A stretch of DNA of 64,000 nt, from the NCBI GenBank assembly GCA_937959395.1, contig CALGLR010000055.1, positions 9,603-73,602 of the forward strand. The letters run 5' to 3'. Under the pieces are notes generated by a model, which was not told the origin of the DNA, did not search any database, and was given only the letters and a program-made list of their open reading frames with translations. Both the position numbers and the translations under genes were made by a program. Within the stretch, counting starts at the first letter, position 1. Each line of letters begins with the position of its first letter. Positions 8,798-60,975 of this stretch are shown here, in pieces. The stretch is from an uncultured Flavobacteriaceae bacterium. Lineage in GTDB: Bacteria; Bacteroidota; Bacteroidia; Flavobacteriales; Flavobacteriaceae.

Positions 8798-10084
8798 TTA
8801 CTCTTTAATCTTAAATTTTATTGGCAAATAATAAGGAACCGTAACCGCTTTTCCTCCATGAGTCCCTGGTATTAATTTTGGAAGCAAACCAACAACTCGT
8901 ATCGCTTCTTCTTCTAAATCAGGATGCGGTGCTCTTGCTTTCAATTCTTTTATTGTACCATCTTCAGAAATTTTGAAAAATACACTTATTTTTAGAACTC
9001 CGGTTAACCCTATATCATCTGCTAATTTTGTATTGAAGTTTTGACCAACTAGTTTATTTATATTCTTTGAAAAACACTTTTTCTGATCTTCTGCGTCTTC
9101 ACAACCTGGAAAAACTGGCACATTCTCTATTATTGAGAAAGCAACCTCATTGGTTTCTACTTTTTTCTCACTATTAAGGCTTTTTTTTTGTTCATACTTC
9201 AAGCTTTCGTCTTGATTTACATCATCACTTTCTTGGACACAAGCGGTATAAAATAGCATACCAACAATTGCTGGAATTAATAATAAATACTTAACTAAAC
9301 TCTGTTGTTTTGATTTTGATTTACTTAACATAATGATTCGTTTTTTGATTAATGATTTTTTAAAAAATGGATTGATAAATGAAATGTTTTTTACTGAAAA
9401 AGCTTGTGCTAATAAACGCTCGTAATAATGTTTCTTATTTTGTGTTATAACCACTTTATCATCGGCGATATACTCATGAAGCGTCGCAATTCTATTTTGA
9501 TAAATATATAGTAAAGGATTAAACCAAAATACGATACGTTGCGCTTCAAAAAATAGTAAATCTAATGAGTGCTTCTCTTTTACATGTATGGTTTCATGTG
9601 CCAATATGCTTTGTCTTTCATCTACATTTAATTGATCTCCAATAAAAACATAACGAAAAAAAGAAAATGCAGCATCACTATTTAATAATGTAATAATTGT
9701 TCCATATTCTGTTTTACTTTTCGGACTCTTAGAAATAAGATGTATTAATTTCACCATCTTTAAAATAAACATAACAAAAGCAAATAGCATTCCTAAATAC
9801 AATACATGTTGCATTGAAAAAGCAAACTCATTTACATTAACTCCGTTATTAGCATCTAATACGTTATTATTAATAACCACTTCCGGCAAACGAATAATAT
9901 ATTCTTGCGGAATTATGTTTTGAAAACTTTCTAATTTAATAAAAGGCAATACTAATGATAGAACACTAGTAATAATTAAATAGGCTCTATTGCAATTAAA
10001 AAACGTTTCTCGCTTTAAAAAAACATCGTAAATCACTATAAATAATAATTGAAATACAATGATTTGAATACTATAATGAATCAT
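8798..10084 (-). CDS. M56 family peptidase / BlaR1-like signal transducer with C-terminal TonB-like domain
   Basis: HETIHVKEKH zinc-metallopeptidase motif (HExxH) in the membrane part. C-terminal domain (VPVFPGC...KAVTVPYYLPIKFK) is typical of TonB C-terminal domains. 4-nt overlap with blaI. Confidence 0.8.
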   Translation of the reverse strand: MIHYSIQIIVFQLLFIVIYDVFLKRETFFNCNRAYLIITSVLSLVLPFIKLESFQNIIPQEYIIRLPEVVINNNVLDANNGVNVNEFAFSMQHVLYLGMLFAFVMFILKMVKLIHLISKSPKSKTEYGTIITLLNSDAAFSFFRYVFIGDQLNVDERQSILAHETIHVKEKHSLDLLFFEAQRIVFWFNPLLYIYQNRIATLHEYIADDKVVITQNKKHYYERLLAQAFSVKNISFINPFFKKSLIKKRIIMLSKSKSKQQSLVKYLLLIPAIVGMLFYTACVQESDDVNQDESLKYEQKKSLNSEKKVETNEVAFSIIENVPVFPGCEDAEDQKKCFSKNINKLVGQNFNTKLADDIGLTGVLKISVFFKISEDGTIKELKARAPHPDLEEEAIRVVGLLPKLIPGTHGGKAVTVPYYLPIKFKIKE

Positions 10085-10446
10085 AACTTTTCATTTTTAT
10101 TAATTTCTTTTAAAACCGATTCTAATTCATCTAAACTGATTTCATTTTTTTTCATAAAAAAGGAAACCATACTTTGAAATGATCCTTGAAAATAGTTATT
10201 TACTAATTTATTTATAGACTGGTTACTGTATTCTGTCTTTTTTAATACAGGGAAATAAATATGTCCCTTTCCTTTTTTTTCATAATCTACAAACCCCTTA
10301 GATTCTAAAATTCTTACTATCGTAGAAACAGTGTTATATGCAGGTTTTGGATCTGGTAATTCCTCTATTATCTGTTTTACATTGGCTTTTTCTAATTGCC
10401 ATAATACTTGCATTATATCTTCTTCTGCCTTTGTTAGTACTTTCAT
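10081..10446 (-). CDS. BlaI/MecI/CopY family transcriptional repressor
   Basis: 121-aa winged-helix protein (LTKAEEDIMQVLW...YNTVSTIVRILESKGFV) overlapping the downstream M56 gene. Confidence 0.85.
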   Translation of the reverse strand: MKVLTKAEEDIMQVLWQLEKANVKQIIEELPDPKPAYNTVSTIVRILESKGFVDYEKKGKGHIYFPVLKKTEYSNQSINKLVNNYFQGSFQSMVSFFMKKNEISLDELESVLKEINKNEKL

Positions 10447-10585: not shown

Positions 10586-11083
10586 ATGGATATACTTTTT
10601 GCCTTTATTGGTTTATTATTTATGTGTTTCGGTTTAATTGGCAGCTTTCTGCCCGTTCTTCCTGGTCCAACATTAAGTTGGGTAGGCTTATTAATGCTTT
10701 ATTTAACTAATGCTATTGATAATGATTGGACTTTCCTTGGAATAACATTAATAATTGCCCTTATTGTTTTTGCACTAGATTATATTATTCCTGCTATAGG
10801 TACCAAGAAATTTGGAGGCACAAAAGCAGGTATGATTGGTACCTCTATAGGTTTAGTTATTGGTATTTTAGCTCCTATTCCTGGCGGAATAATTATTGGC
10901 CCTTTCTTTGGCGCTTTACTAGGAGAACTTTATAACAAAGCAGATTCGACGACTGCGTTAAAAGCGGCATTCGGTTCTTTTTTAGGGCTTTTAACTGGAA
11001 CCTTTTTAAAGTTTATTGTCGCAATAATCTATTTTGGATTTTTTATAAAAACGTTTTGGGAGCACAAAGACCTTATTTTTTAA
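10586..11083 (+). CDS. DUF456-like small membrane protein
   Basis: 165 aa, 4 Gly-rich TM helices (GSFLPVLPGP...IPGGIIIGPFFGALLGE). Confidence 0.6.
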   Translation: MDILFAFIGLLFMCFGLIGSFLPVLPGPTLSWVGLLMLYLTNAIDNDWTFLGITLIIALIVFALDYIIPAIGTKKFGGTKAGMIGTSIGLVIGILAPIPGGIIIGPFFGALLGELYNKADSTTALKAAFGSFLGLLTGTFLKFIVAIIYFGFFIKTFWEHKDLIF

Positions 11084-11341
11084 TATAAACACATCTCTTT
11101 TATCCTTTAATAATACCAAATGAATTTCAAAAGTCATTGTTTTAAATTTGAATTATTTTTTATTTACATGAAATAGAAATCGTAAGATTCATAAAATCAT
11201 TAATTTAAAATATAGAATCGTAAACTAAAATATAAGCACAGCATTAGTTACGGTTCTATTTTCTACTGAAATATGAATGAAAAAGAAACCTATTTAACCA
11301 ATAATTTTGATGTTCATTTGGTATAACCATCAAAAAACTGT

Positions 11342-11470
11342 AAAAAGAAACCCTATGTTTTCGAGAGAAAACATAGGGTTATTGTGTAAATGTGCTATTA
11401 CCAACTAATCCCCATTAGTGAGTAACCTAATTTGATTGTTCATCTAATTTACAAAAAATAATAGTTGCTT
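11342..11470 (-). ncRNA. candidate sRNA, copy A (5-prime end approximate)
   Basis: Repeat unit ending in a 14-bp stem (11349-11380) plus U-run on the minus strand, with a 28-nt invariant block next to the terminator. Conserved CTTAGTTTATGTAAA promoter-like box upstream. Confidence 0.4.
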
Positions 11471-11491
11471 TTACATAAACTAAGCGCTCAC

Positions 11492-11511
11492 ATTACGGTT
11501 TCTCCCGTAAT
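11492..11511. promoter_or_regulatory. inverted repeat ATTACGG-N6-CCGTAAT upstream of sRNA copy A
   Basis: Read directly. Same position relative to each repeat copy. Confidence 0.3.
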
Positions 11512-11537
11512 TATTTAATTAATAATCAGAAAACTAC

Positions 11538-11668
11538 AAAAAAGAGGAAACCCCATGTTTTCGAGAGAAAACATAGGGTTATTGTGTAAATGTGCTATTA
11601 CCAACTAATCCTCTTAGTAAGTAACCTAATTGATTGTTAATCTAATTTACAACGAATAATGCTTGGTT
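11538..11668 (-). ncRNA. candidate sRNA, copy B (5-prime end approximate)
   Basis: Same unit as copy A. The stem substitution at 11554 keeps pairing (G-U) only in the minus-strand transcript. Confidence 0.4.
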
Positions 11669-11689
11669 TTACATAAACTAAGTGACCGT

Positions 11690-11709
11690 ATTACGGGTTT
11701 TCCCGTAAT
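11690..11709. promoter_or_regulatory. inverted repeat ATTACGGG-N4-CCCGTAAT upstream of sRNA copy B
   Basis: Perfect 8-bp arms, read directly. Confidence 0.3.
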
Positions 11710-11732
11710 TATGATGATTTTCACCTAATAAT

Positions 11733-11892
11733 CTCAGTTCGACATAAAATGTTAGTGATCAAAGACCGTCAATTCAAGTAAATTTTTGCAACACAGCGAA
11801 AAAAAATAGTGTCCAGAATAGGTTTTTGATACGAAAATCACTGTTCTCGATACACTTCTCCTTAAGTCGAAGCACTCGAACTGACGTGATTT
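11733..11892. repeat. MITE-like ~160-bp element (inverted copy of 20572-20732)
   Basis: Contains CAGTTCGA...TCGAGAACAG...CTTAAGTCGAAGCACTCGAACTGACGTGATT. Aligns by eye with the reverse complement of 20572-20732. Confidence 0.6.
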
Positions 11893-12043
11893 AGAGAGCA
11901 ATTCAGAGGTGTAAATTTCTTCTTATTCAGATTATACTTAAATGGATAGTCCCCTATAATCTTACTTAATCCCTTGAGCCGTCATTTGGTACCTGCGTAG
12001 TCGAAGTTAGCATTAAAACAATTCTAATAAACACATAAATTTA

Positions 12044-12172
12044 TAAAAAGAAGAAACCCTATGTTTTCGAGAGAAAACATAGGGTTATTGTGTAAATGTG
12101 CTATTACCAACTAATCCTCTTAGTAAGTAACCTAATTGATTGTTAATCAAATTTACGACGAATATTAAGTGT
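12044..12172 (-). ncRNA. candidate sRNA, copy C (5-prime end approximate)
   Basis: Third copy of the unit, with terminator stem 12055-12086 plus U-run on the minus strand. Confidence 0.4.
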
Positions 12173-12195
12173 ATTTACATAACTAAGCGAGCTCA

Positions 12196-12215
12196 ATTAC
12201 GGGTTTTAACGTAAT
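12196..12215. promoter_or_regulatory. inverted repeat ATTACG-N8-CGTAAT upstream of sRNA copy C
   Basis: Arms are shortened relative to copy B, but the core ATTACG/CGTAAT is retained. Confidence 0.3.
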
Positions 12216-12245: not shown

Positions 12246-12290
12246 AAAAAAACTGTTAAAAACACAGAAATTAACATTTTGTTAACAGTT
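12246..12290 (-). terminator. intrinsic terminator after the response-regulator gene
   Basis: Minus strand reads ACTGTTAA-(loop)-TTAACAGT followed by a run of 7 T. Lies 17 nt after the RR stop. Confidence 0.6.
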
Positions 12291-12306: not shown

Positions 12307-12984
12307 TTACAAAATACCGCGTTCTTGCGCTGCTTTTAACAAAGACTCGTCTTTAGAATCACTTACCTCAAGTAGTTCTCGCAAATGTTTTTTCCGCTTT
12401 TCTATAGTACTTAGCGATACATCTATGTGGTCTTTTATGTTTTTTGTTTTAATCCCTTGAGAGATTAGATGAAGAATTTTAAGATTTGTAGCATCAATTT
12501 CTAAATCTGCTTTAGAAGATTTTTCTACAAATGCTTTTACGGTTTTACTATAAAACGGTGGTTGGGTTAATATCACATGAAATGCACTCGCTAATTCTCT
12601 AGCCGTAAGATCACTTTTTATTAAAAAACCTTCTGGAGCTATAGTATTAATTATATTCTGAATTCTAAAACCTTCATTAAACATGGTAAGAATAACGATT
12701 ATGGCTTCAGGTATTTTTTCACGCACACATTTAGCAAGGTCATAGCCTGATTTAAATTTCCCATCATTAGATGGTGGTATACTAATATCAAAAAACAACA
12801 TGTCGTAAGGATATCCACTAGCTATGGATCCTTCTATAGCTGCAATAGACTCATCACAGTTATTAGCCGTTTCAATAATAAGGTCGTGATTTGCGTTTTT
12901 GGTAGCCAGCAACGTATTTTTATACCCTTCGAGAATCATAGGGTGATCATCTGTCATTAATATTTTAATTGTTCTGGTGGCCAT
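12307..12984 (-). CDS. LuxR/NarL-family response regulator
   Basis: Receiver domain (ILMTDDHPMILEG, phospho-acceptor region MLFFDISIPP) plus C-terminal LuxR HTH (LKILHLISQGIKTKNIKDHIDVSLSTIEKRKKHL). Confidence 0.85.
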   Translation of the reverse strand: MATRTIKILMTDDHPMILEGYKNTLLATKNANHDLIIETANNCDESIAAIEGSIASGYPYDMLFFDISIPPSNDGKFKSGYDLAKCVREKIPEAIIVILTMFNEGFRIQNIINTIAPEGFLIKSDLTARELASAFHVILTQPPFYSKTVKAFVEKSSKADLEIDATNLKILHLISQGIKTKNIKDHIDVSLSTIEKRKKHLRELLEVSDSKDESLLKAAQERGIL

Positions 12985-15259: not shown

Positions 15260-15439
15260 CTATCCCTGCCCTGGTACATCTTTTACCTTTATATCTATTA
15301 AAGCTGTCAACTTTACTTTTGGTTGATTGATCTCATGATTTGAAGATTCATTCTCTCCTGTTTCTTCTTTTAACTGGCTTATTCCTGTTAATAATGCAAT
15401 CGCAAAAATGGCTAGTACTGTAATTTTTAATGTTTTCAT
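15260..15439 (-). CDS. small secreted peptide paralog P1 (59 aa, not in ORF track)
   Basis: Hand translation: MKTLKITVLAIFAIALLTGISQLKEETGENESSNHEINQPKVKLTALIDIKVKDVPGQG. Confidence 0.6.
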   Translation of the reverse strand: MKTLKITVLAIFAIALLTGISQLKEETGENESSNHEINQPKVKLTALIDIKVKDVPGQG

Positions 15440-15472
15440 AATGTTTTATTTTTGTGTTATTCAATCAATTTT

Positions 15473-15652
15473 CTATCCCTGTCCTGGCACATCTTTCACC
15501 TTTATATCTATTAAAGCTGTCAACTTTACTTTTGGTTGATTGATCTCATGATTTGAAGATTCATTCTCTCCTGTTTCTTCTTTTAACTGGCTTACTCCTG
15601 TTAATAATGCAATCGCAAAAATGGCTAATACTGTAATTTTTAATGTTTTCAT
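15473..15652 (-). CDS. small secreted peptide paralog P2 (59 aa, not in ORF track)
   Basis: MKTLKITVLAIFAIALLTGVSQLKEETGENESSNHEINQPKVKLTALIDIKVKDVPGQG. Differs from P1 by one residue plus synonymous changes. Confidence 0.6.
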   Translation of the reverse strand: MKTLKITVLAIFAIALLTGVSQLKEETGENESSNHEINQPKVKLTALIDIKVKDVPGQG

Positions 15653-15685
15653 AATGTTTTGTTTTTGTGTTATTTAATCAATTTT

Positions 15686-15865
15686 CTATCCCTGTCCTGG
15701 CACATCTTTTACCTTTATATCTATTAAAGCTGTCAACTTTACTTTAGGCTGATTGATCTCATAATTCGAAGATTCCTTTGCTCCTGTTTCTTCTTTTAAC
15801 CGGCTTACTCCTGTTAATAATGCAATCGCAAAAATGGCTAATACTGTAATTTTTAATATTTTCAT
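15686..15865 (-). CDS. small secreted peptide paralog P3 (59 aa, not in ORF track)
   Basis: MKILKITVLAIFAIALLTGVSRLKEETGAKESSNYEINQPKVKLTALIDIKVKDVPGQG. Confidence 0.6.
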   Translation of the reverse strand: MKILKITVLAIFAIALLTGVSRLKEETGAKESSNYEINQPKVKLTALIDIKVKDVPGQG

Positions 15866-15897
15866 AATGTTTTGTTTTTGTTATTATAATTAATTTT

Positions 15898-16080
15898 CTA
15901 TCCCTGTCCTGGCACATCTTTTACCTTTATATCTATTAAAGCTGTCAACTTTATTTTCGGCTGGTTTACCTCATGATTTGAAGATTCATTCGTCCCAGTT
16001 TCAGTCTCTTTTAACTGGCTTACTCCTGTTAATAATGCAATCGCAAAAATGGCTAGTACTGTAATTTTTACTGTTTTCAT
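15898..16080 (-). CDS. small secreted peptide paralog P4 (60 aa)
   Basis: Track ORF: MKTVKITVLAIFAIALLTGVSQLKETETGTNESSNHEVNQPKIKLTALIDIKVKDVPGQG. Confidence 0.6.
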   Translation of the reverse strand: MKTVKITVLAIFAIALLTGVSQLKETETGTNESSNHEVNQPKIKLTALIDIKVKDVPGQG

Positions 16081-20484: not shown

Positions 20485-20571
20485 ATTCTATGTAAAAATG
20501 GCATTAGCACGAATAAGTATTTTATACCTCACAGGTTTTAAAAACCTGCGAACGTGAGTTCAACTTAAGAA

Positions 20572-20732
20572 AATCACGTCAGTTCGAGTGCTTCGACTTT
20601 AGGAGAAGTGTATCGAGAACATAGATTTCCTTACCAAAAACCTATTCTCGATACTATTTTTTTCCACTTTATTCCAAAAAATCACTCGAACTGACAGTTT
20701 TTGATCACCGACACCTTTATATCGAACTGAAG
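20572..20732. repeat. MITE-like ~160-bp element (inverted copy of 11733-11892)
   Basis: AATCACGTCAGTTCGAGTGCTTCGACTTTAGGAGAAGTGTATCGAGAAC...CACTCGAACTGACAG with internal terminal inverted repeats. Confidence 0.6.
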
Positions 20733-20742
20733 TTGTAAGGTA

Positions 20743-50816: not shown

Positions 50817-50970
50817 ATAAAATTAATTTGTGAGGTTCTCGACCTCTATTATTAATAAGTGCGCAAAGATACAATATTTTTTTAATTTTCAAGTTTTTAA
50901 TGACTTAACACCTTAATTATTATTTTTGTTATATTTTTGGAAGGTAAAAATGTAAATGTAAGTAAGATAT

Positions 50971-60901: not shown

Positions 60902-60975
60902 GGTCTGGTAGTTCAGTTGGTTAGAATGTCGCCCTGTCACGGCGAAGGTCGCGGGTTCGAGTCCCGTCCAGACCG
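60902..60975 (+). tRNA. tRNA-Asp (GTC)
   Basis: Hand-folded cloverleaf: acceptor GGTCTGG/CCAGACC, D stem GTTC/GAAT, anticodon stem TCGCC/GGCGA with loop CTGTCAC, T arm GCGGG-TTCGAGT-CCCGT, discriminator G. No encoded CCA. Confidence 0.9.

Follow-up and report, generated by a model that had tools for sequence, protein, structure and literature searches.

What do three paralogous units that lie in tandem between a response-regulator gene and a convergent DUF456 gene encode? The question arises in 64,000 nucleotides (nt) of DNA from an uncultured Flavobacteriaceae bacterium (contig CALGLR010000055.1, positions 9,603 to 73,602; this whole stretch is called the window), where copies A, B and C of the unit occur. 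A preliminary description, made from the sequence alone, had taken them for paralogous non-coding RNA genes, each a transcription unit of its own, and had matched them to no RNA family. Our analysis agrees. Comparison with relatives points to an undescribed RNA family with a fixed place downstream of the genes of a TPR sensor kinase and a NarL-type response regulator in many Flavobacteriaceae, and the RNA gene is probably switched on by that adjacent regulator. The reading we prefer, with a probability of about 0.6, is that the units are non-coding RNA genes of about 100 nt which the regulator would activate and whose short linker would act in trans.

Repeat units and a positionally conserved family

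A repeat finder run on the window returned three direct copies (11339-11476, 11539-11676 and 12045-12182) together with a second short repeat family, the palindrome ATTACGG..CCGTAAT, at 11492-11511, 11690-11709 and 12196-12215. In a three-way alignment the mean column identity of the copies was 86%. The 28-nt block TTAGTTGGTAATAGCACATTTACACAAT, which lies just 5' of the terminator and had been described as identical in all three copies, was found by exact search exactly three times in the window, always on the minus strand, and was matched in none of 100 shuffles. A terminator scan gave each copy, on the same strand, a 14-pair hairpin whose loop has 4 nt and whose tail is T-rich, in keeping with the earlier picture of three minus-strand units each composed of the block, a 14-bp terminator and a U-run. 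When a covariance model of the RNA family was run over the window with filters off, copies A, B and C were its only matches, the next score being 21.5 bits.

Homologues of the adjacent regulator are common in Flavobacteriaceae; the best, from a metagenome, is 91% identical, and those of named genera are about 61% identical. Three contigs with close regulator homologues (L001, L002 and L004) have one unit straight after the gene, and another, independent G-U change is present in one of their terminators. Hyunsoonleella, Pseudalgibacter, Bizionia, Xanthomarina and Mangrovimonas share the order small open reading frame (ORF), kinase, regulator, gap of about 250 nt and convergent DUF456, and in all five the unit can be recognised within the gap, where its terminator is a different one that covaries. 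We then used the pattern TTNGTTGRTAATAGCA-N0-2-TTTACA to scan one genome per species. At least 119 stretches matched, four of which were chance matches in unrelated phyla. In at least about 110 loci, which represent more than 25 genera of Flavobacteriaceae, the core lies nearly always 150-210 nt past the stop codon of the orthologous regulator gene and on its strand. Among the matches listed, DUF456 is convergent and usually 70-140 nt beyond the core, is missing or distant in some loci, and complete genomes have one copy each. A metagenome scan for the lineage of the window added only five Lacinutrix-like single copies. Searches of plasmids and phages gave no match to the unit, and no terminal inverted repeats flank the units. 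The fixed position across relatives indicates a positionally conserved gene rather than a mobile repeat; dispersal as a mobile repeat had been named beforehand as one finding that would speak against RNA genes, and there is no other copy in the 64 kb.

Copy number varies in a few genomes. Most have one copy, the window has three, and two uncultured Flavobacteriaceae isolates have 9 and 13. In the first isolate the covariance model found a tandem array of nine complete units after the regulator gene (L080 3860-6315). The 13 units of the second lie on contig CANMAQ010000001 (L048 27-7231 plus L044 6757-7810), where a 4.4-kb gene block splits the array. Every unit of the 3-, 9- and 13-copy arrays repeats the putative operator, the -7 box, the body and the terminator, and this completeness argues for independent transcription units, as does the position of the family at so many loci for RNA genes.

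The absence of a known family was assessed with Rfam 15 (4227 models, gathering threshold as the criterion). On the whole window Rfam reported only a tRNA (60902-60975, plus strand) and the S16-Flavobacteria leader (50822-50856, minus strand). Relaxing the cut-off to E <= 10 on the region produced sub-threshold noise, mainly at the terminator hairpin, with a best score of 21.8 bits against the 114 needed, and Rfam found nothing at the element in eight related loci and the Pseudalgibacter gap. Full-text literature searches returned no description of this RNA family. In passing, Rfam identified a Flavo-1 RNA in an Algibacter locus (L051 5120-5193) that is unrelated to the element.

Coding potential was sought on both strands, and inside the units there is no ORF whose frame is conserved between copies or lineages. 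The short ORFs within units extend through the terminator. From one lineage to another no frame survives the core indels of 0-2 nt, and AUG is absent from the commonest type. One opposite-strand candidate of 8-10 codons, MLL(S/P)T.., was seen by eye in all three lineages. It was rejected because the sole variable core base is a first codon position, indels hit the start codon and there is nothing downstream to regulate.

Promoter, putative operator and anatomy of the RNA

TAnnTTTG is the primary-sigma motif of Bacteroidota, and in flavobacteria the -33 motif frequently escapes detection (PMC7366714). A -7 box of this type stands 33-47 nt ahead of the core and is perfect in 116 of 132 family units; the consensus of the window copies, aligned with more than 100 relatives, is TAAATT(T/A)G. 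Copy C has the perfect box TAAATTTG, and copies A and B have TAAATTAG with one mismatch. Such a box, as a consensus match rather than a mapped start, precedes every copy, including those inside arrays. From its position, the start would lie about 100 nt before the U-run ends, so that the RNA would be about 100 nt long and not about 130 nt as first proposed, with a predicted start some 4 nt past the box. The preliminary description had chosen CTTAGTT(T)ATGTAAA as the -7 element. This box exists (11470-11484, 11668-11682 and 12174-12187), but the true -7 box lies about 25 nt downstream of it, and relatives have their proximal regulator half-sites and the -33 region where CTTAGTT(T)ATGTAAA stands.

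Among the regulatory features of each unit, the palindrome at its 5' edge, which the preliminary description had left uninterpreted, tells the most. In the window it takes the form TTACG-N8-CGTAA (ATTACGGGAAAACCCGTAAT on the minus strand in copy B), which occurs three times against 0.04 expected. Across the family the two 5-mers occupy four phased positions relative to the -7 box (Table 1). At least one phased half-site is present in 126 of 135 units, and both 5-mers are rare at other positions. The half-sites combine into two inverted repeats, TTACGG-N5/6-CCGTAA, two helical turns apart, whose centres would fall near -41 and -62 from the start as judged by the -7 box; the subsets kept differ by lineage. 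The fetched loci, 1.06 Mb in all, have 56 near-perfect TTACGG-N5-7-CCGTAA sites, and 47 of them are at these promoters. The one family member without an adjacent two-component system, L020, is also without half-sites. That element (L020 4321-4426, from a Hyunsoonleella metagenome-assembled genome) lies beside an unrelated 280-aa gene and has a -7 box and no TTACG/CGTAA.

Could the palindrome instead be an RNA hairpin? We rejected this, as copy C loses the inner pairs and retains TTACG/CGTAA, and half-site combinations vary between units. Since the half-sites are conserved by sequence and position and not by pairing partner, we read them as protein-binding DNA sites.

The anatomy of the RNA was taken from an alignment of 116 non-redundant family members. 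The family-wide core is GUUGRUAAUAGCA..UUUACA. RNAalifold joins the 5' end (AUCAAC) to the core GUUGRU in a first helix that is 99% paired; in the Lacinutrix-like and window copies folding pairs the 3' strand of this helix with an internal segment instead. The terminator helix has 98.7% of its cells paired, with compensatory changes in nine of the ten counted pairs, a level reached by none of 500 shuffles. The covariation that had been suggested as a check is present in the terminator.

Which strand is transcribed follows from the same alignment. Copy B reads AACCCCATG on the plus strand and GAAAACATGGGGTT on the minus strand, and its C at 11554 gives a G-U pair in a minus-strand RNA, as had been pointed out before. 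Over both helices of the family there are 125 G-U cells and three A-C cells, and the T fraction after the stem is 0.72 on the regulator-sense strand versus 0.48 on the other. The G-U excess and the T-rich tail identify the transcribed strand as the regulator-sense strand, which is the minus strand of the window.

The 28-nt block had been proposed to be a single-stranded seed, and only part of that proposal stands. Its 3' half, the roughly 15 nt of AGCACAUUUACAC(AA), is predicted to be an unpaired linker and is the candidate seed, but its 5' half, UUAGUUGGUAAU, is predicted to be paired; with about half of the block in a helix, only part is likely to be free as a seed. UUAGUUGRUAAU was paired and the linker AGCA(CA)UUUACAC free in four of six folded RNAs, namely window copy A and three relatives, one per lineage. 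The minimum-free-energy folds of window copies B and C pair part of the linker.

In the commonest lineage the first loop AAUCCCUCA and the terminator loop GUGAGAGAC are almost invariant, although the terminator stem covaries. A loop such as GUGAGAGAC that is near-invariant across many genera is unusual for a terminator; the window type has UCUC in a GUUUUC/GAAAAC stem. The commonest type has a Shine-Dalgarno-like GGAGGUGA in its terminator loop, which we considered and rejected, as GGAUGUGA and GGACCUGA variants occur and no start codon follows.

Table 1 Features of the locus; half-site positions are relative to the start of the -7 box over the family
Feature	Position	Strand	Basis or remark
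Small-RNA gene copy A, predicted transcript about 100 nt	11340..11440	minus	covariance model 56.0 bits, 11338-11445; most diverged copy
Small-RNA gene copy B, predicted transcript about 100 nt	11538..11638	minus	covariance model 59.5 bits, 11538-11643
Small-RNA gene copy C, predicted transcript about 100 nt	12044..12144	minus	covariance model 64.8 bits, E = 6e-10, 12044-12149
Terminator hairpin, copy A	11349..11380	minus	terminator scan
Terminator hairpin, copy B	11549..11580	minus	terminator scan; one G-U pair
Terminator hairpin, copy C	12055..12086	minus	terminator scan; 14 bp, loop UCUC, then UUUCUUCUUUUU
28-nt block, copy A	11381..11408	minus	identical across A, B and C
28-nt block, copy B	11581..11608	minus	identical across A, B and C
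28-nt block, copy C	12087..12114	minus	identical across A, B and C
-7 box, copy A	11444..11451	minus	family alignment
-7 box, copy B	11642..11649	minus	family alignment
-7 box, copy C	12148..12155	minus	family alignment
Inverted repeat upstream of copy A, putative operator	11492..11511		repeat finder and phasing
Inverted repeat upstream of copy B, putative operator	11690..11709		repeat finder and phasing
Inverted repeat upstream of copy C, putative operator	12196..12215		repeat finder and phasing; about 47-59 nt ahead of the -7 box
Half-site TTACG	-60 (+/-1)		14% of units
Half-site CGTAA	-49 to -46		68% of units
Half-site TTACG	-38 (+/-1)		70% of units
Half-site CGTAA	-27 to -24		22% of units
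Response-regulator gene, NarL/FixJ type, putative activator	12307..12984	minus	structure alignment, domain matches; directly upstream of array
Sensor histidine kinase gene, 679 aa	13005..15044	minus	domain matches; two hydrophobic segments flank the TPR repeats, and HisKA_3 and HATPase_c follow
DUF456 gene	10586-11083	plus	other edge of gap; 260 nt from RNA genes
MITE-like insertion (MITE, miniature inverted-repeat transposable element)	11723..11892		between copies B and C, outside RNA genes; 84% identity over 171 nt to 20571-20741; inverted ends CAGTTCGA/TCGAACTG

Proposed mechanism and competing explanations

Put together, these features suggest the following mechanism. The phosphorylated regulator would bind the phased TTACGG/CCGTAA inverted repeats, with centres about 40 and 60 nt upstream of the start, and would thereby activate a primary-sigma promoter with a good -7 box and no clear -33 box. 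Transcription would end at the strong hairpin and U-run. The resulting RNA would consist of a first stem-loop, with UUAGUUGRUAAU as its 3' strand, the unpaired linker AGCA(CA)UUUACAC of about 15 nt, and the terminator. The linker is most likely the seed for pairing with mRNAs elsewhere in the genome, and extra copies (3 in the window, 9 and 13 elsewhere) would raise the dose of one RNA.

Several points weigh against this mechanism. The core was also the search pattern, and so ascertainment accounts for part of the invariance seen in the core and in the first helix's 3' strand; that helix shows one-sided G-U changes only, and its 5' partner differs between lineages. The link between regulator and putative operator is based on adjacency and conservation, the window has the distal palindrome only (its proximal site is degenerate), and no second regulon member with the operator motif turned up among the fetched loci. 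The start site is deduced from the -7 box, and transcription itself we infer. As to targets, the 64-kb window, which is too small for target prediction, held no credible one. The complement of the linker had two weak extra matches there, one of which, with two mismatches, lies about 340 nt inside a 248-aa ORF rather than at a start codon. A feedback role for the RNA on its own operon was also tried and is unsupported: in 20 loci the duplex energies between the RNA and the leader of its operon were no better than those of shuffled RNA (mean z = +0.43).

The serious rival to seed pairing is titration. The RNA would be made as described and would act as a sponge for a protein or another RNA, copy number tuning the titration capacity. 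The arrays of 9 and 13 near-identical complete units suggest selection for dose, which fits base-pairing RNAs equally well. The almost invariant loops AAUCCCUCA and GUGAGAGAC of the commonest lineage would suit a binding partner, and a motif like TTAATTA..TCCCTCA recurs in the operon leader, where it could be a shared binding site; yet the loop motifs are absent from the window copies and several Lacinutrix-like copies, which retain the linker, and the analysis turned up no candidate protein partner. In Bacteroidota neither Hfq nor ProQ is known (PMC7366714), and the searches for target pairing were negative; both points suit titration. We consider it unlikely. The distance from the regulator stop codon raises another possibility, for it is very constant, and in most loci no more than a few tens of nt separate the stop codon of DUF456 from the terminator. 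The element might then be the 3' end of the regulator operon, that is, an RNA derived from its 3' untranslated region, or a bidirectional terminator or antisense region shared with DUF456. Here the terminator of its own that had been assigned to the regulator gene matters. The hairpin at 12246-12290 (-12.9 kcal/mol, z = -1.1) is weak, 28 of 200 shuffles folding as well or better, and is not a demonstrated terminator. Read-through or an origin in the 3' untranslated region is thus possible for the first copy, and this leaves the promoters of internal copies unexplained. A -7 box and phased sites precede every copy, also the array-internal ones far from the regulator. DUF456 is missing or distant in several loci and 260 nt away in the window, and the U-run is on the regulator-sense strand by the T fractions given above. 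An origin of this kind we judge distinctly unlikely.

Should the units act as DNA only, for example as decoy arrays of regulator sites with no functional RNA, one would expect what the half-sites show, namely that they are conserved in place and sequence, not in pairing partner, and that they multiply along with the units. It is the body and not the sites that is the most conserved part, however, and the hairpin that ends the body shows compensatory changes; the ratio of 125 G-U to 3 A-C cells is explained only by selection on RNA. We regard action as DNA as very improbable. Almost no credence is left for a dispersed mobile repeat (of the miniature inverted-repeat or repetitive extragenic palindrome kind) or a type I toxin-antitoxin repeat. 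Tandem copies with hairpins, and the true element of the former kind between copies B and C, would bring these to mind. The position is fixed in at least about 110 genomes with one copy per complete genome among the matches listed, the 64 kb hold no further copy, plasmids and phages gave no match and flanking terminal inverted repeats are lacking. Nor did we find, on either strand, an ORF conserved between copies or lineages, such as the small hydrophobic ORF, overlapped by an antisense RNA, that a type I toxin-antitoxin repeat would have. The small-RNA gene activated by its neighbouring regulator, with the linker pairing in trans, is thus the explanation we retain.

Two-component system, comparable small RNAs and neighbouring DNA

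The regulator, a receiver plus LuxR-type protein, aligns over its full length to the structures of NarL, RcsB and VraR and has a receiver match and a weak GerE match. Directly upstream of the kinase gene (15260-16080, minus strand) are four tandem paralogous genes for proteins of 59-60 aa with an N-terminal signal peptide and a conserved C-terminus (..KVKLTALIDIKVKDVPGQG); relatives have a single small ORF at the same place, often encoding a lipoprotein (..LTSCTKQDLNEDD). No Pfam or NCBIfam family matched these small secreted proteins, which might serve the TPR sensor as a ligand or partner. The isolate with nine units (L080) has a single small ORF upstream of its kinase gene, and the amplifications of RNA unit and small ORF are therefore independent. 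The leader of the small-ORF/kinase operon, about 3.1-3.3 kb upstream of the RNA core, is strongly conserved (L005-L120). It has, in order, ATTCCCTCAAAA, a hairpin that covaries and carries a U-run, AAGTTAATTATCCATTTTTCCCTCA, another covarying hairpin and, ahead of the ATG, TAACCTTAAAATCGAAT. In most genera its motif TTAATTA..TCCCTCA resembles, and does not complement, the first loop of the RNA. An autoregulatory operator upstream of the kinase operon was sought and rejected, there being none at <=1 mismatch and a few distant sites inside coding regions.

We would tentatively entertain a wider view, although it is rather doubtful, that the locus is a complete signalling module undescribed in Bacteroidota. 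The secreted protein would signal to the extracytoplasmic TPR domain of the kinase, the kinase to the NarL-type regulator, and the regulator to the RNA as main or only output, with dose set by copy number (1 to 13) and possibly with titration in place of seed pairing. If true, the module would be equivalent in function to the Qrr circuits of Vibrio or the Rsm circuits of Pseudomonas and made of unrelated parts.

How does this RNA compare with small RNAs already tied to regulators? It appears to be a new family of the kind linked to two-component systems, lacking the defining features of Qrr, RsmY/Z and OmrA/OmrB. OmrA and OmrB of enterobacteria are adjacent sibling small RNAs activated by EnvZ-OmpR; sibling small RNAs are the subject of the review PMC4211561. 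They resemble the window units in being side-by-side paralogues, each with its own promoter and terminator, with identical ends and a diverged middle, and in transcription that depends (in the window, presumably) on a response regulator. The differences are that there is no sequence or Rfam similarity, that the window regulator is of the NarL type and theirs of the OmpR type, and that the conserved block of the window adjoins the terminator whereas theirs is at the 5' end. Moreover, the window genes directly follow the two-component operon, their host belongs to a phylum without known Hfq, and feedback on their own operon is unsupported.

The Qrr RNAs of Vibrio are four to five scattered paralogues with sigma-54 promoters, an NtrC-type activator (LuxO) and a need for Hfq. 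Like them, the window units are several near-identical paralogues with an invariant stretch and would be a phosphorelay output, and copy number varies by species, which suggests dose control. Unlike them, they have a Bacteroidota primary-sigma promoter, a NarL-type regulator, a tandem arrangement and no Rfam Qrr match. RsmY and RsmZ are controlled by GacS-GacA, with a NarL/FixJ-type regulator and an 18-bp palindrome upstream, and bind CsrA/RsmA through repeated GGA motifs in loops. The broad regulator family, the upstream palindrome (6-N5/6-6) and the several paralogues are shared. The window site is TTACGG..CCGTAA, however, and theirs TGTAAG..CTTACA; the window RNAs have a single GGA (GAGGAUUAG) and no repeated loop GGA; and the window regulator scores 18.8 bits against the GacA model, whose cut-off is 280. 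PrrF1 and PrrF2 of Pseudomonas aeruginosa are tandem Fur-repressed small-RNA genes and to our knowledge never exceed two copies. They too are near-identical and head to tail, a short spacer lying between genes that each have a promoter and a regulator site of their own, but Fur represses them where a two-component system would activate the window units, and the sequences are unrelated.

Closer to the host are GibS of Bacteroides thetaiotaomicron and Rfp18 of Flavobacterium psychrophilum, intergenic Bacteroidota small RNAs in which extended single-stranded seeds are thought to act without Hfq (PMC7366714, PMC9723704). Phylum, TAnnTTTG promoter, AT-richness, a length of about 100-200 nt and intrinsic terminators are shared. 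The window RNA lacks similarity to curated Rfam families, and GibS and Rfp18 are not described as linked to two-component systems or tandemly amplified.

Studies of Flavobacteriia have covered very few small RNAs, and in the literature we found none tied to a two-component system. The present family occurs widely among marine genera that degrade polysaccharides, for instance Algibacter, Tamlana, Mariniflexile, Lacinutrix and Xanthomarina. With it come a regulator hypothesis, a putative operator, a promoter and a candidate seed, and so it offers a testable entry into post-transcriptional control without Hfq and ProQ, as well as a route to the output of an uncharacterised TPR sensor kinase. The natural copy-number series of 1, 3, 9 and 13 is an unusual resource on small-RNA dosage.

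The remaining DNA around the units holds some further features. Copies B and C are 506 nt apart and copies A and B 200 nt, owing to the insertion between B and C (Table 1), the other copy of which (20571-20741) sits between convergent genes. Beside DUF456 (8798-10446, minus strand) are two genes, one for a BlaI-type repressor (Penicillinase_R) and the other for a BlaR1-like M56 peptidase that has a TonB_C domain; in many relatives, too, this pair is syntenic with the module. Between DUF456 and copy A lies an inverted repeat (11113-11141/11296-11324) with 29-nt arms that are 79% complementary and 154 nt apart, and the whole 260-nt stretch there has weak similarity to intergenic DNA of two of the related loci (L073 and L039).

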